Origin: Candidatus Omnitrophota bacterium
GTDB taxonomy: Bacteria > Omnitrophota > Gorgyraeia > Gygaellales > Profunditerraquicolaceae
Direction: 5' to 3'
Length of the DNA: 64,000 nt
NCBI GenBank assembly: GCA_041650295.1
Contig: JBAZLM010000003.1
Span: 66,933-130,932, forward strand
Shown: in pieces, positions 814 to 43,000 of the stretch
How positions within the stretch are numbered: position 1 is the first letter of the stretch
Layout of the letters: every line of letters starts with the position of its first letter
Notes under the pieces: model-generated
What the model was told of the DNA's origin: nothing
The model's input: the letters and a program-made list of their open reading frames with translations, nothing else
The model's database searches: none
Program-made: the position numbers and the translations under genes

Positions 814-1038
814 TTATTCCTTAGCTATGGCTAAAGTAATTACGCCAGCTAAAAGCAGAAATAATCCAATACCACCTTTAACCATCGTCATCAGGTCCGG
901 CCAGAATTTATATATAGCCAAACCACCTAAAACTAAAAATACTAAACCTAAAACTACTTTTAACAATGTCGCTAACATTTTTTTAGAACCGCAACATTTG
1001 CTCTCTGTTCCACAACATTTCTTTTCATCTTGTGCCAT
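814..1038 (-). CDS. Small membrane protein with Cys-rich N-terminus (hypothetical)
   Basis: 74-aa ORF with a CCGTESKCCG motif followed by two hydrophobic helices. No family recognised. Confidence 0.45.
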   Translation of the reverse strand: MAQDEKKCCGTESKCCGSKKMLATLLKVVLGLVFLVLGGLAIYKFWPDLMTMVKGGIGLFLLLAGVITLAIAKE

Positions 1039-1050
1039 ATTGCACCTCCT

Positions 1051-1350
1051 TTATTGACTAGGTCTACCCCGTTAGAGATAGGAAACGCTTCAGACGATTC
1101 TTTAAATAGCGTTTACCCATTCCTGTTTTTAAATATCTTTCTCTAGTAAAAGCATCGTCCTTATCTATACAAGCTTCGTAATATATTAATTCAAAAGGTC
1201 CTCTATTTTTAGTTGATACTACTTTGCCTTCATTATGTTCACTGAAGCGTTTCCGTAGATCAATAGTAGTGCCGGTGTAAAACTTGTTGTCCTTTTTACT
1301 CCTGATTACGTATGTGTATACCATAAGCCGTAATCTCTAACGGGGCTTAC
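1051..1350. mobile_element. Hairpin-repeat element carrying the GIY-YIG gene (IRs ccccgttagagat / atctctaacgggg)
   Basis: A perfect 13-bp inverted repeat flanks the GIY-YIG ORF. The same IR is found at 16692-16756 and 35555-35599 with only a short loop. Confidence 0.55.
1064..1324 (-). CDS. GIY-YIG nuclease family protein (UPF0213/YhbQ-like)
   Basis: 86 aa with the GIY-YIG core YVIRSKKDNKFYTGTTIDLRKRFSEHNEG. The gene lies exactly between the 13-bp inverted repeats at 1067-1079 and 1333-1345. Confidence 0.8.
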   Translation of the reverse strand: MVYTYVIRSKKDNKFYTGTTIDLRKRFSEHNEGKVVSTKNRGPFELIYYEACIDKDDAFTRERYLKTGMGKRYLKNRLKRFLSLTG

Positions 1351-8155: not shown

Positions 8156-9257
8156 CTACGCCTTATTAGCACTAAACTTTAAATACGCTTCGATAAACTC
8201 ATCCAATCCACCGTCTAAAATTTTTTGACTATCTCCGGTCTCAAACTCCGTGCGATGGTCTTTCACTAAATTATACGGATGTAAAACATAAGAACGAATC
8301 TGGCTACCCCATTCAATTCTTTTTTTATCGGAATCCTGCTGTTTTACTTCAGCTAATTTTTTAACTTGTTCAGATTCATAAAGTCGAGCCTTTAAAATCT
8401 TAAAAGCAGTTTGCTTATTTTGAAACTGAGAACGCTCGTTCTGACATTGCGCCACAATCCCAGTCGGCAGATGCGTAATTCTCACCGCCGAATCCGTAGT
8501 ATTTACGCTTTGACCACCAGCACCTTTAGAACGATAAACATCAATGCGCAAATCTTTTTCATCGATCTTAATATCTAACTCTTCTTCAATCTCAGGAATT
8601 ACATCCACTGAAGCAAAAGAAGTATGCCTACGTGAATTAGCATCAAACGGAGAGATGCGCACCAAACGATGCACTCCGCGTTCAGCTTTTAAATAACCAA
8701 AAGCATAAGCACCTTCAATTAAAATAGTGACGTTTTTAATTCCCGCTTCTTCTCCGGGGAGCAGATCAATGGTTTTTACACTATAGTTATGCCTTTCCGC
8801 AAAACGAGTGTACATTCTTAACAACATCCCTGCCCAATCACAAGACTCTGTTCCGCCAGCTCCAGAATTAATACTTAAAATCGTACTATTCTTATCAAAC
8901 TTTCCACCCAAAAGCACTTGAAACTCTAATTTATCAATTATACCAATAAGCTCTTGAGTATTCTGCGTTAAATCTAAAACTAAATCTTGATCATTATCTT
9001 TGACTAAAGGAACCAGCTCAGAAAGTTCTTCATATTTCTTATGCGCTAAATCCCAAGGCTCAACCGTTGCCTTAAGGTCTTTTAACTCCTTAACCATTTT
9101 AGTGGATTTTTCTGAATTATCCCAGAAACCTTCGGAAGACATCTGAGCAGATAAAACTTCTATGCGTTGCTTTTTATTGACAACGTCAAAGATAACCTCT
9201 TAAATTTTCTACTCTCACTCCAATTTCAATAAGTTGCTTTTTAATTTCCTCAACCAT
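8156..9257 (-). CDS. prfB: Peptide chain release factor 2 with programmed +1 frameshift
   Basis: SPF motif ([16 protein letters not shown]) and GGQ motif. A frame-0 [26 protein letters not shown], ends at CTT TGA C (plus-strand gtcaaag, 9185-9191). The +1 frame then continues as [22 protein letters not shown]. Confidence 0.9.
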
Positions 9258-9276
9258 GTCTTCTGCCCCCAATTAA

Positions 9277-10347
9277 TTAACTCTTCTTAATTCCTCTGTA
9301 AGCTAACATAAATTCTTCGCGACTATCTGCAGCTAAAGCGGCATCCTCTAAAGTTATTTTTCCTTCATTAACTAATTTAACCAAAGACTGCGTAAATGAT
9401 TGCATTCCAAAAACTCCACCTTCTTCAATAAAATCAGGAATCTCCCAAATTTTACCCTCGCGAATTAAGCGACTAATCGTCGGTGTAAGTAACATAACTT
9501 CATAAGCAGGGATACGATTACCATCTTTAGCGGGAATTAAGCGTAAAGAAATTACTCCCTTTAATAATGTAGATAATTGATTTTTCACCTCTTGATGTTG
9601 ATGTGGAGGGAAAAAATTAATTAACCTCTCTACAGACTGCGACGCATTAATCGTATGTAAAGTACTTAAAACTAAAACTCCGGTTTCTGCTGCTGCAATC
9701 GCACTAGATACAGTTTCATAATCACGAATATTACCAATAAACATTACATCTGGGCTTTGTAACGTAAAAGCTCGCAAAGCAGTAGGGTAGTCTTTAACAT
9801 CAATTCCTAGCTCCCGTTGATTAATAATCGATTGTTTATCAGCAAAAGTTAATTCAATCGGTTCTTCAGCCGTTAAGATATGCTTCTTTGAATTACTATT
9901 AATATATTCAATCATACTAGCAATCGTCGTAGATTTACCGCTACCCATACTACCAGTTAATAAAACTAATCCACGAGATTCCATCGATAATTTCTTTAAT
10001 ACTTCCGCAGGCAAATTTAGCTCTTCAAAAGTGGAGATAGTATTACGTACATTGCGGATGACAATCGATGGCCAATTTCTTTGCGTAAACAAACTTACGC
10101 GAAAACGGCGGCCAAATTCTTCTAAATAAACCGCAAAATCTACATCCAAATTATTTCTAAAAACTTCTAATTGTTTCGTATTAGCTAATTGTTCAACCGC
10201 AAGCATTACATCCTCTACACTTAAAATCCGGGTATCCATAGCGACGATCTTACCGTCAATGCGCAGGCGTGGTGTGCCTCCGGCTCGGAAAAAAAGATCA
10301 GAAGCATTCTTAGCCACCATCTCCCCTAATAATTTTCTAATATCCAT
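9277..10347 (-). CDS. pilT: Type IV pilus retraction ATPase PilT/PilU family
   Basis: Walker A box GSMGSGKSTT and the PilT family fold. The start is set at MDIRK, which has a GGAGGA Shine-Dalgarno sequence 7 nt upstream. The ORF-track start at 10425 is an upstream extension. Confidence 0.8.
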   Translation of the reverse strand: MDIRKLLGEMVAKNASDLFFRAGGTPRLRIDGKIVAMDTRILSVEDVMLAVEQLANTKQLEVFRNNLDVDFAVYLEEFGRRFRVSLFTQRNWPSIVIRNVRNTISTFEELNLPAEVLKKLSMESRGLVLLTGSMGSGKSTTIASMIEYINSNSKKHILTAEEPIELTFADKQSIINQRELGIDVKDYPTALRAFTLQSPDVMFIGNIRDYETVSSAIAAAETGVLVLSTLHTINASQSVERLINFFPPHQHQEVKNQLSTLLKGVISLRLIPAKDGNRIPAYEVMLLTPTISRLIREGKIWEIPDFIEEGGVFGMQSFTQSLVKLVNEGKITLEDAALAADSREEFMLAYRGIKKS

Positions 10348-10505: not shown

Positions 10506-11999
10506 TTATACCACCTTATTTCCTTTTAACGTAGAATTAAATTCCATATACTTGGCCATCATTAGTCGGCTTTGCGCATCTAAAGCCGGAATAGAACCCA
10601 CAATTAAAATTATAAATGGCACAAAAAACCATTCTAAAACTAATAATACATGCTTAAGCCAACTAATCCCCTTAGGCCGCGGCGGTAAAATAGTCCAGCT
10701 TAAAAATATCCAAGTTAAACTAGTCAACAAAGTAAACCTAAACAATAACCCGGCAATCTTTGGTAGATTGTAAGCAATCGCCGTCTGACTAAAGAAAACT
10801 CCCCCAAAAAGTAAAGGCAAATATCCAATCACGACCAAAATAAACGCCCAAACCGCCCAAGTAACATGGCTTTCTAAAAGATGAAAAGACCTTCTTAATT
10901 TATTCAACAAAGAAATATTTTTATTTTGCATAAACCCGTCTACCACAAAAGGAAAATTCTCCACTCCCCAAGCCCATCTTCTTTTTTGTTTATACTGCAC
11001 TAAAATCGTCTTCCAAAGATTATTGGAATAAGCTACATCCATCGAAACAGTGATATACAAAGGGACAACTCGATAATCACCATTATAATGCAAATAACCT
11101 TTCCAATAAATCACTGAATCATCAGAGATCATATTCGTTGGCCAATAACCCACCTCTACTAATGTTTTAAAGCTCATACTGTGACTAGAAAATGTCACAA
11201 ATTTCTCAAGCCGCATACTTTCAATCAACTGACAAAATGAACTACTAATTTCGATGAGTCTGGCAAAAGAAGGCGCTTGCCAAATATTATTATTATAAAC
11301 CGGCATCGGCTGATAACTAGCCTGATGCGGCTTAGCTGAAGTTAAAAAATGATATGCCAGGCAACCAAAATATTCTGCCTCTACGCAAGTATCCGCATCA
11401 AAACAAGAGACAATTACTTTTTCATAATCTATTCCTTGCATATCTAAAAATTTTTTAGCCTCCCTAGCCGACCAAGTAGCATTAGCACCTTTAGTGCGTG
11501 CCTCCCCCGCCAACCCATCCGGATGAAACGTCGATAGGTGCGCCCCAAATTTTCCGGTAAACTCATTTTCTAAAATCGCAGCAGTTTCATGTGCCAAGAG
11601 ATTGCGCTCCTCAAAAGCCATCACTAAAATAATCTTTTCTTTTGGATAATGACTTTTACTTAAAGCCTCCAAAGACGGGCGCAAAACTTCCAGTCCCTCG
11701 TTATAAACTGGAAATATAACCAACTGATATAAAGCAGAAAAACCCTGAATTGCTGGCAACTCTAAACAACACTGTAACCAATCTTTATTTTTTTGCCGGA
11801 ATAACCTTTGGTGAGCCATAATTAAAAGTGTAGTTAAATAAATCGTACGGATAATCCAATAAAAATCAAAAGTAATAATAATTAAAGCACTGATTACCGG
11901 ATGAATAATCGAAAGGATAATTAACCCGAGAATTATCCCCCAAGACAAACCTCCGGGAACTATCTCCATAACTCTTCTTAAGAATGCGCGCTTATTCAT
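10506..11999 (-). CDS. Family 2 glycosyltransferase, integral membrane (cellulose-synthase-like fold)
   Basis: 497 aa. N- and C-terminal TM bundles flank a cytosolic GT-A domain (VIVSCFDADTCVEAEYF, QxxRW-like KQKRRWAWG). Confidence 0.65.
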   Translation of the reverse strand: MNKRAFLRRVMEIVPGGLSWGIILGLIILSIIHPVISALIIITFDFYWIIRTIYLTTLLIMAHQRLFRQKNKDWLQCCLELPAIQGFSALYQLVIFPVYNEGLEVLRPSLEALSKSHYPKEKIILVMAFEERNLLAHETAAILENEFTGKFGAHLSTFHPDGLAGEARTKGANATWSAREAKKFLDMQGIDYEKVIVSCFDADTCVEAEYFGCLAYHFLTSAKPHQASYQPMPVYNNNIWQAPSFARLIEISSSFCQLIESMRLEKFVTFSSHSMSFKTLVEVGYWPTNMISDDSVIYWKGYLHYNGDYRVVPLYITVSMDVAYSNNLWKTILVQYKQKRRWAWGVENFPFVVDGFMQNKNISLLNKLRRSFHLLESHVTWAVWAFILVVIGYLPLLFGGVFFSQTAIAYNLPKIAGLLFRFTLLTSLTWIFLSWTILPPRPKGISWLKHVLLVLEWFFVPFIILIVGSIPALDAQSRLMMAKYMEFNSTLKGNKVV

Positions 12000-12927
12000 T
12001 ATCTTTTTTCATTAATTTTTCTAACAAAACTGGGCTAGAGCTTAAGTCTAACTTATATAAATTATTATACGCTCGGCCATTTATATTTTTTTGATTATCG
12101 CTAAAATAAAGCAAGTTTTCTTTGCTATCATAGAAAGCTACCGTAGCTTCTTTATTTAATTTTACTAAATTTATCGGATGCGCTTGCGTTCGCGATTCAA
12201 TGATTTGAATATACTTGTCCGTAAATACAATTAAATGATAGCTATCCGCATACCAAAAGACATTAATTATTTTCTCCTGCGGATAATCTAAAAATACCGC
12301 CGAATCCGCATACCCATAATCTGCCTGATTATCAAAGAAAACTACCACAATTTGGTGTTGGTTAAAAATAAATAATTTATTTTTATCATCAGCTACCTGC
12401 CAGCCAACAATTGAGGTAAATTTTTCCGGTAAACTAGCGATATCCTCAAAATTGCCCCCTTCTAAATTAGAACGATAAACTACATTGGTTTCTTGATCTA
12501 AATAATAAATAAATTTTTTTTCAAAATCTATATGAAAAGAAGAAAACTTTTCTTGATTCAATTGCAATAAATTAGGACGCAGTGGGAAAAGAATGATTTT
12601 ATCTAAACGACAAGCTTTCCCCGCCTCAACGTAAGCCTCTCCCTTCCAGGGATAATGCTGTTTCAACTCAATCGCAATTTTATAAGTACCCGGGACTAGC
12701 TCATGCAAACTAGTGGGAGTTTTTTCAGCAGTTAATTTACCATTTAAATATACTTTTGCACCGTCAGGTTGGGTTTTTACAAAAATTAATCCGGTTTTAG
12801 TGAATTTTAAAGTATGGGGATTGAATTTATACCCTAAAGCAAAAGAAAGAATAAAGGGCAACCCAGCAAAAAACAAAGATAAGCTTAGATAAAATAATAA
12901 GCTTCTAATTTTTTGAAAATTTAACAT
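11992..12927 (-). CDS. PEGA domain-containing protein
   Basis: An N-terminal TM is followed by a PEGA-like segment (FVKTQPDGAKVYLNGKLTAEKTP). The rest is uncharacterised. Confidence 0.5.
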   Translation of the reverse strand: MLNFQKIRSLLFYLSLSLFFAGLPFILSFALGYKFNPHTLKFTKTGLIFVKTQPDGAKVYLNGKLTAEKTPTSLHELVPGTYKIAIELKQHYPWKGEAYVEAGKACRLDKIILFPLRPNLLQLNQEKFSSFHIDFEKKFIYYLDQETNVVYRSNLEGGNFEDIASLPEKFTSIVGWQVADDKNKLFIFNQHQIVVVFFDNQADYGYADSAVFLDYPQEKIINVFWYADSYHLIVFTDKYIQIIESRTQAHPINLVKLNKEATVAFYDSKENLLYFSDNQKNINGRAYNNLYKLDLSSSPVLLEKLMKKDNE

Positions 12928-16074: not shown

Positions 16075-16764
16075 ATTTACCACTAATTTTTCCAAAGCAA
16101 AGGCAGGCCTAAGCCTGCCTGTTTTTATCTCAATATCACAATTCAGCAAAAGTTTTAATTTTCTCTTTGCAATTTGACTTTGGATATCCTGTTTTTCCCA
16201 AGCAAAACGCAAACCGCCCAAAATCCTCTCCGGGGCTTGGCCATTTTTAAGCAGCTGGCTTAAGACCTCCAGAGCATAATCAGTTTTTCTCAATTCAATC
16301 TGGCGATTTAAAGCAAATGTATCCGGATTAGTTATCTCTTTAAAACGCATAAGCGATGCATATGAAGAGATCGCCTTAACAAATTCATCTTTATAATCAT
16401 ATTGCGGAAAATCTAAAACTAAAATTAATTGTTTAAATGGCTTTTTAGCATAAGCCAGCAGAAAATCCCGCGATGCATCATCTAGAGAATCTGCTTCTTT
16501 AATTACAACAATTCTTTTTTCACTTTTTAAGGGAATTGCCAGAAAACGTTCTTGGATATCTTTTAATTTTATTTCATTAGCATATAAGATATCCAGGTTA
16601 AAATCCTGCAGATCTTTAGAAAGGGCTTCCTGCTTTATTTTTCTAAGTTGAGTTTCTTTAGCCGCGATATCCTGGCCAATAAGTAAATAAACCCCGTTAG
16701 AAACAGGTTGTCGCAGACAACCACCGGATGTCTCATTTATCTTATTTCTAACGGGGTAAACCAT
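16057..16764 (-). CDS. holA: DNA polymerase III delta subunit (HolA), short
   Basis: VYLLIGQD...RKIKQEAL signature of the clamp-loader delta subunit. The ATG lies 1 nt after the lptE stop. Codons 3-24 are encoded by the hairpin repeat at 16692-16756. Confidence 0.7.
   Translation of the reverse strand: MVYPVRNKINETSGGCLRQPVSNGVYLLIGQDIAAKETQLRKIKQEALSKDLQDFNLDILYANEIKLKDIQERFLAIPLKSEKRIVVIKEADSLDDASRDFLLAYAKKPFKQLILVLDFPQYDYKDEFVKAISSYASLMRFKEITNPDTFALNRQIELRKTDYALEVLSQLLKNGQAPERILGGLRFAWEKQDIQSQIAKRKLKLLLNCDIEIKTGRLRPAFALEKLVVNLCAFV
16101..16126 (+). terminator. Rho-independent terminator for rpsT
   Basis: Stem aggcaggc, loop ctaa, stem gcctgcct, then gttttt. It lies inside the 3' coding end of the convergent holA ORF. 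Confidence 0.6.
16692..16756. repeat. Hairpin repeat copy 2 (ccccgttagaaa ... tttctaacgggg)
   Basis: 12-13-bp perfect inverted repeat with a 41-nt spacer. Same motif as the IRs flanking the GIY-YIG gene. Confidence 0.8.
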
Positions 16765-35501: not shown

Positions 35502-35554
35502 AAAATTTATCTATTGACCTTTGCTATTTTAGAATATAAAATGCTTAACGTCAA

Positions 35555-35599
35555 CCCCGTTAGAAATACAAAATTATAATAGCATAATTTCTAACGGGG
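35555..35599. repeat. Hairpin repeat copy 3 (ccccgttagaaat ... atttctaacgggg)
   Basis: 13-bp perfect inverted repeat with a 19-nt loop, lying between the divergent tRNA-Ala and tRNA-Leu. Confidence 0.8.
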
Positions 35600-35616
35600 T
35601 CAACTTAAAAATCTAT

Positions 35617-35699
35617 GCCGGGATGGCGAAATGGCATACGCGGCAGCCTCAAAAGCTGCTGAGCGCAAGTTCATGTGGGTTCAACTCCCTCTCCCGGTA
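35617..35699 (+). tRNA. tRNA-Leu (CAA), type II with long variable arm
   Basis: Acceptor stem GCCGGGA/TCCCGGT. D-arm GCGAAATGGCATACGC. Anticodon stem-loop GCAGC-CTCAAAA-GCTGC. T-loop GGTTCAACTCC. One apparent mismatch remains in my T-stem parse. Confidence 0.55.
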
Positions 35700-35707
35700 T
35701 TTTTTTA

Positions 35708-36367
35708 ATGAAACAAAATATTAATCACAACTGGAATTCAAATTTAGCTTACGCTATCGGCCTTATAGCGACTGATGGAAATTTATCAAAAGACAAAAGG
35801 CATATCCTCTTTACGACAACTGACCTGCAATTAGCAAATACATTCAAAAAGTGTCTAAACATTAAAAATAAAATAATAATCACTTCTCCAAGCGGTTTCG
35901 GAAAGAAACGCGCTTATAGAATAAATTTTGGAAATGTAAAATTATATCAATGGTTGCAAACAATAGGGCTGATGCCTAAAAAAACAATGTTAATGGGTAA
36001 ATTAGATATTCCAGATAAATATTTCGTTGATTTCTTAAGGGGTCACCTTGATGGTGACGGCTCTATTTTTACTTATACCGATAAATACATGAAATACAAA
36101 GAAAAAAAGTATACTTATTTCAGATTATACACTAAGTTTATCTCAGCTAGTTTTATCCAAATTAGCTGGATTAGAGAAAAAATTAAAGAAATATTAAATA
36201 TACAAGGATCATTAACTCACTATCTTAAAATAAATAGAAAATTTCCTATTTGGCAACTTCGTTTTGCTAAAAATGATTCTTTAAAACTTCTATCCTGGCT
36301 CTACTACAAACCCAATCTGCCTTGTTTAAATCGTAAAAGAAAAATTGCACTACGTTTTATTAAGTAA
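35708..36367 (+). CDS. Free-standing double-motif LAGLIDADG homing endonuclease
   Basis: Two LAGLIDADG motifs are present (LAYAIGLIATDGNL and FLRGHLDGDGSI). It is 219 aa long and starts 9 nt after tRNA-Leu. Confidence 0.8.
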   Translation: MKQNINHNWNSNLAYAIGLIATDGNLSKDKRHILFTTTDLQLANTFKKCLNIKNKIIITSPSGFGKKRAYRINFGNVKLYQWLQTIGLMPKKTMLMGKLDIPDKYFVDFLRGHLDGDGSIFTYTDKYMKYKEKKYTYFRLYTKFISASFIQISWIREKIKEILNIQGSLTHYLKINRKFPIWQLRFAKNDSLKLLSWLYYKPNLPCLNRKRKIALRFIK

Positions 36368-38008: not shown

Positions 38009-39511
38009 CTACTTTCTTAATTGTTCTTTATCGATCTTACCCGTACGATTCTTAGGAAGGCTGGTACAAAATTCAAAATAATGCGGAATCTTAAAATTTG
38101 CTAAATTCTGTCTTAAAAAATAACGCAGATCTTCTTCGCTAAGCTGCTTTCCTTCTTTAATTACTAAAAATGCTTTGGGAACCTCTCCTCTTAATTTATC
38201 TGCCACCCCCACTACTGCGGCCTCAGCAATATCCGGATGTTTTTGCAAGCTAGCTTCAACTTCCGGCTCAAAGACAATCTCGCCACCCACCTTAATCATC
38301 TCTTTTTTTCTACCGACAATATAGAGATAGCCGTCCTGATCAAATTTACCTAAATCTCCGGTATGAAACCAACCACCCCGCAAGGTTTCTTTAGTTAATT
38401 TGGCATCTTTAAAATATCCGTCGGTAACCACCCAACTTTTTACCACAACCTCTCCTACCTCTCCGCAAGGTAACTCCTGGTCCGTGCCTGAAAATATTTT
38501 TACCTCTATCCAGGGAGCCGGTCGGCCCACGCTTTCAACGTTTTTTGAACCCATCGGTAAAACTACCGTCGGAGCATTGGTTTCGGTTAAGCCCCAACCA
38601 TTCAAAAGACTAGCCTTGGGACAAAACTGATGAAACCTGCGCAAAGCATCCGGAGAGTTAGATGCCCCAAAGGTAACAATCCAACGCAAACTAGATAAAT
38701 CAAAAGTTTCAAACTCTTTTAATTGTAAAAGCGCATAATACATCGAAGGCACAATCCAGAAAAAATTTATCTTATAATTCTGTACGTTCTTTAAAAATTC
38801 TAACGGGCTAAAACGCTCCATCAAGACAACTTTTAAACCAAAAGAGATCATATTCTGGATATAAATTAACCCTCCTAAATGCGAAAATGGTAAAGCACAA
38901 AGTGCAGTATCTTTGGCACTCAGATCAGAGTTCACAAAAAAAGCCATCGATTTAGGCGGAGCATCTAATTGCGCATAATTAATTAAAACTCCTTTGGGTT
39001 TACCCGTGGTACCAGAAGTATAAAAAATTATGGCATAATCTTTTTCATTAATTTTTACCTGCGGAGCCGAACTTGATCCTTCGGCCAAAAGTTTTTCATA
39101 ACTTAAACTCAAGCTATCCTCTGATTGACAGGAGATAATATTTTTTAATGAAGGTAGTCTGGCCTTAAGATTAGCAAATGAAATATTAGCTTTATGTTTA
39201 GTAATTAGTAACTTAGTTTCAGAATGATCTAGGCAGGAAACAATCTCTTCTTCGGTAAGCATAAAATCTAAAGGCACACTACAAGCCCCCACTGACCAGA
39301 TCGCTAAATAACTAATCACATACTCCGGCCAATTAGGCAAATAGATCGCTACTTTATCCTGCGGCTTAACTCCCAACTTAATTAAACTTTGCGCAAATGA
39401 AAATACTTTATCTTTTAATTGAGAAAAAGAGATCTCATCCTGACGAAAAATAATCGCCGGTTTATTGGCATACTCTTTGGCACAATTTTCTAAAACATTA
39501 ATTACTTTCAC
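38009..39511 (-). CDS. AMP-dependent synthetase / long-chain fatty-acid-CoA ligase family
   Basis: AMP-binding motif YTSGTTGKPKGV and the acyl-CoA synthetase C-terminal domain. GTG start. Confidence 0.8.
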   Translation of the reverse strand: MKVINVLENCAKEYANKPAIIFRQDEISFSQLKDKVFSFAQSLIKLGVKPQDKVAIYLPNWPEYVISYLAIWSVGACSVPLDFMLTEEEIVSCLDHSETKLLITKHKANISFANLKARLPSLKNIISCQSEDSLSLSYEKLLAEGSSSAPQVKINEKDYAIIFYTSGTTGKPKGVLINYAQLDAPPKSMAFFVNSDLSAKDTALCALPFSHLGGLIYIQNMISFGLKVVLMERFSPLEFLKNVQNYKINFFWIVPSMYYALLQLKEFETFDLSSLRWIVTFGASNSPDALRRFHQFCPKASLLNGWGLTETNAPTVVLPMGSKNVESVGRPAPWIEVKIFSGTDQELPCGEVGEVVVKSWVVTDGYFKDAKLTKETLRGGWFHTGDLGKFDQDGYLYIVGRKKEMIKVGGEIVFEPEVEASLQKHPDIAEAAVVGVADKLRGEVPKAFLVIKEGKQLSEEDLRYFLRQNLANFKIPHYFEFCTSLPKNRTGKIDKEQLRK

Positions 39512-42067: not shown

Positions 42068-43000
42068 TTATACTTCTCCACTAAAAGTGCCTAAATAAAT
42101 ATGTTTAGTAATTAATGCATTCGGCGTAACATCAAAAGCCGGATAATAAGCTTTAACTTCTTTAGGCGCTAAACGCAACCCTTGATAAATTTTTAATTCA
42201 TCATCCGGCCGAATCTCAATCACAATCTCTTTACCAGTTTTTAATTTTGAAGCCGGCGGACAAATAACATAAAAAGGAATCTTAAAGTATTTAGCCACCA
42301 CCGCAATTTGATATGTTCCAATTTTATTGGCGATATCACCATTTAAAGTTAAATGATCTGCTCCCACGATAACCTTAGTTACTTTACCTAGCGATAATAA
42401 ATACGCCACCATATTATCAGTAATAATTGTAACCTCAAAACCGGCGCGCATGATTTCCCAAGCAGTAAGCCGCGAACCTTGCAAATAAGGACGAGTTTCC
42501 GTAACATAAAAACTGATTTTTTTGCCTTGCTCCTTAGCAAACTGTGCAATTAACGGCATTAAGCCACTCACATTGCAATGCGTCAAGATTACATCACCGT
42601 CTTTAAGTAAATCGGCAGTAGCTTTAGCCTGCTGGATTCTTTTACCTTTAAGCATCTCTAAAAATCCCAAGATACTTTTTTCTAACGGTGCTCCACTTTT
42701 AACCATCCCTAAAACCATATCGGTTAAGAATTTAAATGATAATGTGGGACGCGTGGCATTAATCGCCTGAGCAACTTTAAATAAATCTTTATTCTGGCGT
42801 TTACTTAAAATAAAAGTATACATTACTAAAAGCACTTGGCCCACGGCACGAGTTTTCATCTGTTTAATCGCGCCACAAGCCTCCAGATAATTCTTAGCCT
42901 TAAGATAAACTAATTTTTGGGGCAATTGAGTTTCATCAAGGATATAAATAACATTACCCTTAAGTTGAATCGGCCAAAATAATGGAGAAAATTTCATCAT
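42068..43000 (-). CDS. mtnA: S-methyl-5-thioribose-1-phosphate isomerase (eIF-2B alpha/beta/delta family)
   Basis: GADHLTLNGDIANKIGTYQIAVVAKYFKIPFYVICP matches the MtnA/e2B core. Confidence 0.75.
   Translation of the reverse strand: MMKFSPLFWPIQLKGNVIYILDETQLPQKLVYLKAKNYLEACGAIKQMKTRAVGQVLLVMYTFILSKRQNKDLFKVAQAINATRPTLSFKFLTDMVLGMVKSGAPLEKSILGFLEMLKGKRIQQAKATADLLKDGDVILTHCNVSGLMPLIAQFAKEQGKKISFYVTETRPYLQGSRLTAWEIMRAGFEVTIITDNMVAYLLSLGKVTKVIVGADHLTLNGDIANKIGTYQIAVVAKYFKIPFYVICPPASKLKTGKEIVIEIRPDDELKIYQGLRLAPKEVKAYYPAFDVTPNALITKHIYLGTFSGEV

Follow-up and report, generated by a model that had tools for sequence, protein, structure and literature searches.

A 64,000-nt stretch of the genome of an Omnitrophota bacterium (GenBank assembly GCA_041650295.1, contig JBAZLM010000003.1, positions 66,933 to 130,932; here called the window) contains three units bounded by the same 13-bp inverted repeat, the longest of which carries a gene for an 86-residue GIY-YIG nuclease. 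The best interpretation is that they represent a family of very small mobile elements, one unit being an autonomous copy and the other two gene-less. We consider it probable that the family is an insertion sequence (IS)-like mini-transposon with miniature inverted-repeat transposable element (MITE) derivatives, and that its GIY-YIG nuclease acts on the folded element ends.

Three insertions in the window

Inverted pairs of CCCCGTTAGARAT occur three times in the window. Six arms were found at one mismatch or fewer against 0.18 expected (100 shuffles, largest count 2), all six where a preliminary description of this DNA had placed them. At three mismatches the matches fall to chance level (38 versus 28 expected), so the window holds exactly three units. 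Copy 1 is the full-length element of 279 nt (1067..1345, minus strand), with CCCCGTTAGAGAT at both ends of its arm pair, 1067-1079 (+) and 1333-1345 (-). In gene orientation it reads as the 5' arm CCCCGTTAGAGAT (1333..1345, -), an 8-nt spacer, and an ATG followed by the nuclease open reading frame (ORF), which ends CTA TCT CTA ACG GGG before a TAG. The nuclease gene (1064..1324, -) has its stop codon at 1064-1066, and the 3' arm ATCTCTAACGGGG (1067..1079, -) supplies its last four codons, encoding the C-terminal SLTG. The ORF had been described as bracketed exactly by the repeat; instead, it contains the 3' arm, and 8 nt separate the 5' arm from the ATG. The arms had also been said to overlap the stop codons of both neighbors. 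This holds for the upstream LpxL-like gene (PF03279), which terminates at the TAG of the 5' arm (1337-1339); the downstream gene, encoding 74 residues (814..1038), presents its start to the element and begins 25 nt past it.

That copy 1 was inserted into a tight gene junction, as first proposed, is evident from empty sites. In three relatives (L218, L219, and L220; LpxL 89% and 81% identical) the LpxL/74-residue junction contains neither the nuclease gene nor the hairpin, and the downstream gene starts 10-15 nt after LpxL. The empty sites read AAGAGCAAACCAAATCAATAAGGAGGTG or AAGAGTAAACCCAGTTAATAGAGGAGGTG, and the window reads AAGAGTAAG, the 279-nt element, and TAGACCTAGTCAATAAAGGAGGTG. Judged by the empty sites of L218 and L220, the sequence fits entry into a TAAA that would later have drifted to TAAG on the left (1346..1349, -) and TAGA on the right (1063..1066, -); these flanks are the probable decayed target duplicates, and the right one gives the nuclease gene its stop codon. 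The insertion is also reflected in the LpxL C terminus, which is ...KPR* in the window versus ...KPSQ* or ...KPNQ* in the relatives without the element.

Copy 2 is a gene-less unit of 65 nt (16692..16756) between the LptE stop codon and the conserved start of holA, with arms CCCCGTTAGAAAC (16692-16704, +) and CCCCGTTAGAAAT (16744-16756, -) inside a duplicated TAAA (left 16688..16691, right 16757..16760, +). With 13-nt arms its loop is 39 nt rather than the 41 nt given originally, and the innermost pair is mismatched. It had been described as lacking an ORF, but it is translated in frame as holA residues 4-26. Among 120 holA orthologues, most encode 212 residues, begin MVYLLIGQD, and have no insertion; the window HolA and a subset of the orthologues begin MVY-PVRNKINETSGGCLRQPVSNGVY-LLIGQD. 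The empty site in the DNA of one relative (L217) reads taatATGGTTTATTTACTT (also given as ATGGTTTATTTACTT), and the filled site in the window reads taatATGGTTTA (left part also given as ATGGTTTA), the 65-nt element (CCCC...GGGG), and TTTATTTACTT. With its 4-bp duplication (TTTA), the 65-nt element thus adds 69 nt, or 23 codons. The same 23-residue insertion is common to a clade of Omnitrophota orthologues (P0289-P0400) in progressively decayed forms such as MVYPHTNGNRSQVKHPIGLGVYLL. The peptide may have been inherited and tolerated in an essential replication protein, and repeated insertion at the same TTTA is also possible.

Copy 3 is a 45-nt gene-less unit with a 19-nt loop (35555..35599) between tRNA-Ala (-) and tRNA-Leu (+). 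Its arms, 35555-35567 (+) and 35587-35599 (-), are CCCCGTTAGAAAT, and it is flanked by a duplicated TCAA (left 35551..35554, right 35600..35603, +). The 4-bp direct repeats at both solo copies had been overlooked in the preliminary description. The units in the window are discrete DNA insertions.

Beside copy 3, a LAGLIDADG-type endonuclease ORF (35675-36367, +; PF14528, E=6e-7; phrog_4645, E=1e-26) starts inside or just past the 3' end of tRNA-Leu(CAA) (35616-35700), 76 nt from the hairpin, so that two selfish nucleases are represented at one tRNA junction: this ORF and the family of copy 3. A lone half-arm, AATTCTAACGGGC at 38796-38808 (-), was treated as a chance match; it is partnerless, and the region 38461-38880 looks like ordinary coding sequence. 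A similar match, TTTTCTAACGGTG at 42678-42690 (-), has no partner arm and is probably also due to chance.

A covarying two-helix structure and the nuclease it encloses

Seventy-two full elements were aligned and folded with RNAalifold, and pairs were counted on the structure given here. RNAalifold recovered helix P1, the 13-bp repeat (columns 1-13 with 276-288), and independently found a second helix, P2 (columns 98-108 with 264-274). P2 joins GGAAACGCTTC (codons for LRKRF, residues 23-27) to GAAGCGTTTCC (codons for LKRFL, residues 78-82). In copy 1 its 5' strand, GGAAACGCTTCAG (1242..1254, -), covers the nuclease codons for RKRFS (residues 24-28), and its 3' strand, CTGAAGCGTTTCC (1081..1093, -), covers the LKRFL codons and ends 1 nt from the 3' arm. 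Across P1 and P2, 96.5% of the cells were paired, versus 88.8% in shuffles, and double changes were found in 183 cells versus 49.6 ± 11.6 in shuffled alignments (none of 500 reached 183) and 7-23 in slid controls. In P1 alone, 98.5% of cells were paired and 6 of the 13 pairs showed compensatory changes, for example at columns 1/288 (UA 41, CG 28) and 13/276 (UA 39, CG 22, AU 8). Comparable exchanges occurred in P2 at columns 102/270 (GC 34, AU 32) and 108/264 (UA 31, CG 27, GC 6). In P2 the changes are synonymous, falling at the third positions of Lys and Arg codons that are ~160 nt from each other, a covariation for which protein constraint alone provides no explanation. The alignments indicate that the pairing is under selection. 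The numbers of G-U versus A-C pairs in P1 and P2 were too few to separate RNA-level from DNA-level structure.

The two complementary arms of the terminal inverted repeat have the 13-bp consensus NCCCGTTAGANNN. The near-invariance of arm positions 2-10 (CCCGTTAGA) suggests that the arms are recognized by sequence; positions 1 and 11-13 vary freely yet stay complementary.

The 86-residue product is a single GIY-YIG domain (PF01541, E=3.5e-18, 66 bits against a cut-off of 22.6), in agreement with the original assignment. Residues Y3, Y5, Y16, G18, R26, H30, E62, and N76 are invariant across 28 homologues and are read as the GIY-YIG catalytic motif. The protein is 62-100% identical across phyla, indicating strong purifying selection. 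AlphaFold2 with the family alignment gave a GIY-YIG fold of a three-stranded sheet and helices (predicted local distance difference test score 91), with a predicted long, basic, family-specific C-terminal helix (residues 68-85, 18 residues) that ends FLSLTG; the model contains no second or DNA-binding domain beyond this helix. Foldseek matched the model to BH0048 (UPF0213), Slx1 (7cq3, TM score 0.64), and the I-TevI catalytic domain, and weak sequence matches were found to TIGR01453 and phrog_314. The best sequence match in the PDB is UPF0213 protein BH0048 (1zg2, E=6.8e-7), so the earlier label "YhbQ-type" is apt at the superfamily level and no further.

Distribution, gene-less copies and target sites

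Detectable homologues of the protein number 3226; the top 120 share at least 72% identity with it, and almost all of these have 86 residues. An exhaustive search of 50%-identity clusters returned 7087 at E<=1e-3 and 1188 at E<=1e-10; look-up of the distant cluster representatives returned almost no names. A scan of one genome per species confirmed at least 562 loci, and the 80 kept for analysis span Omnitrophota, Planctomycetota, many Patescibacteria lineages, Bdellovibrionales, Desulfobacterota, Elusimicrobia, Clostridia, and Zetaproteobacteria. At 69 of the 80 genome loci, the 86-residue gene lies between the same 13-bp arms, across at least eight phylum-level groups and with a gap of 248-259 nt, and the full-length unit was found in 75 further copies. 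The 1.2 Mb examined from the 80 genomes contained no arm pairs 330-4000 bp apart and therefore, within that sequence, no other cargo and no DDE transposase between such arms. The view that hairpin and nuclease gene belong together is borne out by this association. Two outcomes named beforehand as telling against it, a lack of further copies and homologues never flanked by the repeat, were contradicted: further copies were found, and homologues are flanked by the same repeat.

Full copies occur two or three to a contig in L024, L032, and L036, and four MITEs were found in L059. Proteins 88-95% identical to that of the window occupy different junctions: pgk/tpiA (P0006 and P0014), LysM-M23/ATPase (P0003), and ORF6N/unknown (P0101). 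Decayed or pseudogenized copies were seen in L001 (a second copy) and L077. A study of groundwater Patescibacteria placed GIY-YIG genes among those passed to other bacteria (PMC12455944). The Yanofskybacteria locus L036 holds three full copies in 3 kb (9226-9500, 9984-10258, and 11837-12111), two of which share a rare form of the arm, GCCTC…, pointing to proliferation that was very local or recent. In P0090, a solo hairpin at a TTTA-like site adds 16 residues in frame (…KLYPVRSGAPRRGTSNGVYTG…) to the GIY-YIG gene, an instance of nesting inside another copy of the element's own gene.

Solo units were collected from the 10-kb flanks of the genome loci (52 units, loops of 4-120 nt) and from an independent metagenome scan that returned at least 120 contigs (153 unique units in the 120 examined). 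They are short (45-130 nt) and non-coding, have terminal inverted repeats and target duplications, occur in multiple copies (up to four per 15 kb), and share their ends with a coding element, as is typical of MITEs. They keep P1 and arm-adjacent hairpins, and their arms match the full element at positions 1-10. The preliminary description had seen the solo hairpins as parts of the same system, and they do prove to be gene-less relatives of the same element. Many solos with loops of 80-105 nt end ...ACGGAAGCGTTT-loop-AAACGTTTCCT beside the right arm, which is P2 with the ORF deleted. In the 62-71-nt class, two hairpins, each of 7 bp with a 3-nt loop and separated by NNN, lie between the arms, with an A after the first arm and a T before the second; the hairpin letters differ among genomes while the shape stays constant through compensatory changes. 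Copy 2 of the window belongs to this three-way-junction class, with its second hairpin decayed.

An internal deletion of the kind seen in the longer solos was found in the tandem second copy of L001. There (784-929; also L002-L005 and L007) it directly follows a full copy at the pgk/tpiA junction, the deletion lies between the LRKRF and LKRFL codons, and a gene caller joined the remnant to the start of tpiA. On sequence grounds it appears to be the origin of a MITE caught in the act.

Exact 4-bp direct repeats flank 31 of the 52 genome-set solos (permutation null mean 5.5, maximum 13), 89 of the 153 metagenome solos (mean 13.4, maximum 25), and 26 of 75 full copies (mean 9.5, maximum 16). The duplication has the form TNNA: in the metagenome solos, T occupies position 1 in 79 of 89 and A position 4 in 80 of 89. 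The commonest versions are TTTA, TGAA, TAAA, and TTCA. Solos shun coding sequence, with 16 of 145 lying in a stop-free frame against 418 of 765 random segments. Length plus duplication is a multiple of three in 15 of these 16. Overall, the predominant solo lengths are 62, 65, 68, and 71 nt, the multiple-of-three class numbering 78 versus 26 and 24 for the other two, and the solo arms translate without stops as PVR...SNG or TPLE...LTG. Several in-frame metagenome solos (L221-L340; e.g., L262 at 4019 and L229 at 8181) are just upstream of the pilin motif GFTLIELL. The type IV pilin-like pre-proteins that contain a solo read …GFTPLD…YLTGFTLIELLIV…, and the motif codons GGTTTTACC include the favored TTTA.

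Full copies are co-oriented with the upstream gene in 60 of 71 cases and with the downstream gene in 69 of 73. The nearest upstream host stop codon is the TAG of the arm in 16 of 69 full elements and falls in the duplication in a further 12 (28 of 69 together); 21 host ORFs run into the arm, 15 of them in frame and ending at its TAG. Most full elements are followed on the right by TGAA or TAAA, and a right-hand TGAA, TAAA, or TAGA provides the stop codon of the nuclease gene. Between positions 600 and 2400 of the window, promoter-like sites occurred only at chance level and no terminator-like site was found, which disposes of the worry that the repeat might be a general terminator motif. The nuclease is probably expressed through host read-through and translational coupling, and P1 may occlude the start region.

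Proposed mechanism, alternatives and known systems

We infer that the GIY-YIG protein is the element's own mobility nuclease. The argument for this role is circumstantial: the protein is encoded by the sole ORF, has co-evolved with the cis structure, and belongs to a multi-copy unit. In the proposed scheme, P2 would stack beside the 3' arm, and the nuclease would recognize CCCGTTAGA and the adjacent hairpin in folded, probably single-stranded DNA, by analogy with the Ssn enzymes discussed below. It would cut at the arm/flank boundary, leaving rejoining and gap filling to host enzymes. On insertion, 4 bp of target, preferably TNNA, are duplicated. Full copies are located in sense orientation in operons, at or just after a host stop codon, with the duplicated TGA, TAA, or TAG ending the nuclease gene. 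Internal deletion or remodelling gives MITEs of 45-130 nt that keep P1 and one or two small arm-adjacent hairpins; these lie mostly between genes and have lengths that keep frames open. Whether this amounts to a new class of autonomous prokaryotic DNA transposon, with an 86-residue GIY-YIG protein as its sole product and ends formed by a two-helix DNA that is partly its own coding sequence, spread with its MITEs in Patescibacteria, Omnitrophota, Planctomycetota, and others, is a proposition we advance only tentatively.

Several points weigh against the transposon reading. GIY-YIG enzymes are hydrolytic, and we know of none that performs strand transfer; exact 4-bp duplications made with a hydrolytic enzyme therefore need a staggered target cut with host ligation and fill-in. 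The exact duplication is kept in only 35% of full copies, and in eight full copies a left TTCA is combined with a right TAAA (L030, L032, L043, L046, L052, L060, L087, and one more locus), for which simple duplication is no explanation; stop-codon selection after insertion at TTCA, or recombination between copies, is a possible cause. The paired arm changes could partly mean recognition of both arms by one protein, or copying from arm to arm. The inner arm positions of MITEs are often unlike those of the full copy in the same genome (in the window, GAT versus AAT/AAC). The 80 genome loci were selected for carrying the gene, which limits what they say about the link between MITEs and gene genome-wide.

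The best-surviving alternative, although an unlikely one, is a domesticated system like Ssn. Ssn proteins are single-domain GIY-YIG proteins of ~94 residues (cd10448), and on either side of their genes lie hairpin repeats in inverted orientation, NTS/SRM, which have hundreds of solo copies as well; in single-stranded DNA the enzymes bind a conserved upstream motif together with the hairpin, cut just upstream, and affect transformation (Chenal et al. 2025, Nat Commun; PMC11893778). The authors noted that NTS-ssnA-NTS resembles an insertion sequence, proposed domestication, and drew comparisons with IS200/IS605 and REP/BIME (PMC11893778). By extension, the hairpins described here would be host-kept sites for a single-stranded DNA nuclease that modulates DNA uptake or recombination, the gene would lie between its own sites as a means of regulation, and the repeats would have lost their mobility. 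The parallel with the NTS-ssnA-NTS architecture, cleavage of single-stranded DNA beside a hairpin with an effect on transformation (PMC11893778), and the strong purifying selection on the protein all fit this view. It does not account for insertion polymorphism with target duplications, even in an essential gene, for near-identical copies at different loci, or for decayed copies and the nested copy in P0090, and the spread over distant phyla fits horizontal transfer (PMC12455944).

Membership of the Ssn family itself was examined by its published criteria, namely the SRM motif within 500 bp on both sides of the gene and either a blastp match to N. meningitidis SsnA at E<1e-10 with >=75% coverage or cd10448 as the top CDD match. 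The window protein, with 86 residues in one domain, is within the Ssn size limit of <=150 residues. The SRM pattern HGTCWYN(0-2)YYVSBRHN(0-5)WNVSBRGN(0-2)RNCYNB had no match in 75 full-copy regions (0.2 expected) and none in the window. Six NTS-flanked GIY-YIG proteins from viral contigs, obtained with a Neisseria NTS scan, served as proxies for SsnA. The window protein is 25-32% identical to them over residues 3-66 only, with unrelated C-terminal thirds; the matches cover 63-65 of its 86 residues (72-74%), with E-values from 4e-9 to 1e-5 in a database of six sequences; hhalign gave a probability of 92% (E=6.4e-7), again over the core only. Judged by these proxies, the comparison points to a family separate from Ssn, and the absence of SRM likewise speaks against the domesticated-system explanation. 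A host function could nevertheless coexist with mobility.

Ssn-type loci were themselves encountered in IMG/VR contigs. In a canonical one (L151, 7785-8165), NTS(+) is followed by 13 nt, a 103-residue GIY-YIG ORF, 3 nt, and NTS(-); further examples are L098, L174, L176, L189, and L209. In these loci the NTS hairpins are called as the peptide SFPRKRES and flank GIY-YIG ORFs of ~100 residues with the tail KKWxRAWKLxLIExxNPxWxDL. They are useful as references for telling the two families apart.

Less likely again, the hairpins could be ordinary MITEs moved in trans by a DDE transposase elsewhere, the GIY-YIG gene being a passenger captured once. Terminal inverted repeats with a target duplication of fixed length are established hallmarks of DDE elements, and strand transfer is not a known activity of GIY-YIG enzymes. 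Yet no larger element with these ends was found in the 1.2 Mb, and the arm-gene association recurs in 69 of the 80 sampled genomes, Patescibacteria included. The 3' arm lies inside the ORF and P2 is coding with synonymous covariation, so gene and cis structure have co-evolved. To our knowledge, DDE transposases do not require arm-arm pairing with freely varying inner positions.

Only slightly poorer is the standing of a free-standing homing endonuclease, in which the nuclease would home to the empty hairpin and cut it, the gene then entering the loop through repair from a filled copy. The GIY-YIG superfamily includes homing endonucleases, the weak TIGR01453 and phrog_314 matches and the structural likeness to I-TevI point the same way, and the 5' and 3' sequence common to full and partly deleted copies could template conversion both ways. 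The empty sites at LpxL lack any hairpin, so the arms came with the gene, and homing into an existing hairpin is rejected for that site. Full copies also have 4-bp duplications, the protein has no DNA-binding domain beyond its C-terminal helix, and arms of 13 bp give recombinational repair little homology to work with. As a secondary route, MITE and full copies may still be converted into one another. A purely RNA-level signal (terminator, processing site, or translational operator) with no role in DNA mobility is very improbable: P1 does pair the region upstream of the ATG, likely including the ribosome-binding site, with the end of the ORF, which could throttle a toxic nuclease, and full copies are transcribed with host operons, but no terminator-like site or Rfam match supports such a signal, copies occur within coding sequence and in the gap separating divergent tRNA genes, duplications and empty sites denote DNA insertion, and MITEs lacking the ORF keep the structure. 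An additional role of P1 in translational control of the full copy is plausible. In the Rfam search no known RNA family was matched at the gathering threshold across the window, the only matches being chance-level ones at E<=1 around copies 1 and 2. A defense-system interpretation was rejected, there being no PADLOC match.

If the transposon reading is correct, autonomous mobile elements could be as small as ~279 bp, a new minimum; IS200-type elements, at ~0.7 kb, are among the smallest autonomous ISs known. Transposition would be achieved by a minimal hydrolytic GIY-YIG domain together with folded DNA and host repair, and we know of no such mechanism in current IS classifications, nor did the papers searched contain one. 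It would also support the idea, raised for Ssn/NTS, that GIY-YIG/hairpin-repeat systems began as mobile elements. The elements and their MITEs, which abound in genomes of Patescibacteria and Omnitrophota, break assemblies, as judged from the many homologues on very short contigs. They alter protein termini (LpxL), add peptides to essential proteins (23 residues in holA), and cause mis-annotation, e.g., as "excinuclease ABC subunit C." An enzyme that reads a 13-nt motif and a hairpin is a possible sequence- and structure-specific DNA tool, as has been proposed for Ssn.

The REP/RAYT parallel drawn in the preliminary description stands for the hairpin repeats around a nuclease gene and the solo hairpins, and fails for the 4-bp duplications and the behavior as an inverted-repeat transposon with MITEs. 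As in REP/RAYT and IS200/IS605, a small gene lies between hairpin repeats, the genome contains scattered hairpins, single or in clusters, and recognition is probably of folded DNA; the sole ORF here is a GIY-YIG hydrolase and not an HUH Y1 transposase. IS200/IS605 elements make no target duplication and insert beside a fixed tetra- or pentanucleotide, whereas variable TNNA sites are duplicated here and the two ends are complementary to each other. The Rickettsia palindromic elements and Correia elements are likewise short, palindromic, structured, and multi-copy, with target duplications and some copies translated in frame. Unlike those in-frame MITEs, the present ones have an apparent autonomous partner that is itself <300 bp, and their arms are shared with a GIY-YIG gene rather than a DDE IS.

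At the protein level, the best PDB matches are UPF0213/YhbQ-type proteins (BH0048 and EF2693; Bacillus subtilis YazA) and Slx1, a structure-selective nuclease, all at ~30% identity over the core only. A tblastn search of a plasmid collection returned only four weak matches of UPF0213/YazA type. The catalytic fold and selfish spread recall the GIY-YIG homing endonucleases (I-TevI and Seg proteins); in contrast to these, the family described here has no DNA-binding domain, has its own ends and a duplication, and occupies many unrelated sites rather than one cognate allele.

Among the papers searched, none described a GIY-YIG element of prokaryotes that combines terminal inverted repeats with target duplications and MITEs, and none reported the motif, the literal arm motif returning only unrelated primer sequences. 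To have called the arrangement undescribed was nonetheless too strong, given that the Ssn genes are small GIY-YIG genes flanked by hairpin repeats (PMC11893778); the idea of a nuclease-plus-hairpin mobility system was partly right and is, beside Ssn/NTS, not wholly new in kind. Both systems have a gene for a single-domain GIY-YIG protein of roughly 90-100 residues between inverted repeats that also occur solo, and a repeat unit in which a conserved oriented sequence stands beside a small hairpin. Here, unlike in Ssn, the 13-mers of both ends pair together and enclose the gene, the 3' arm is coding, and the arm-adjacent hairpin of the full copy is made from coding segments 160 nt apart. The 4-bp duplications, empty sites, MITE subfamilies, and in-frame insertions also set it apart; the words "duplication" and "in-frame" are absent from PMC11893778, and neither of the hosts Omnitrophota and Patescibacteria is named there. 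Collectively, these comparisons indicate a system that resembles Ssn/NTS in outline and differs from it in protein family, repeat, and target duplications.

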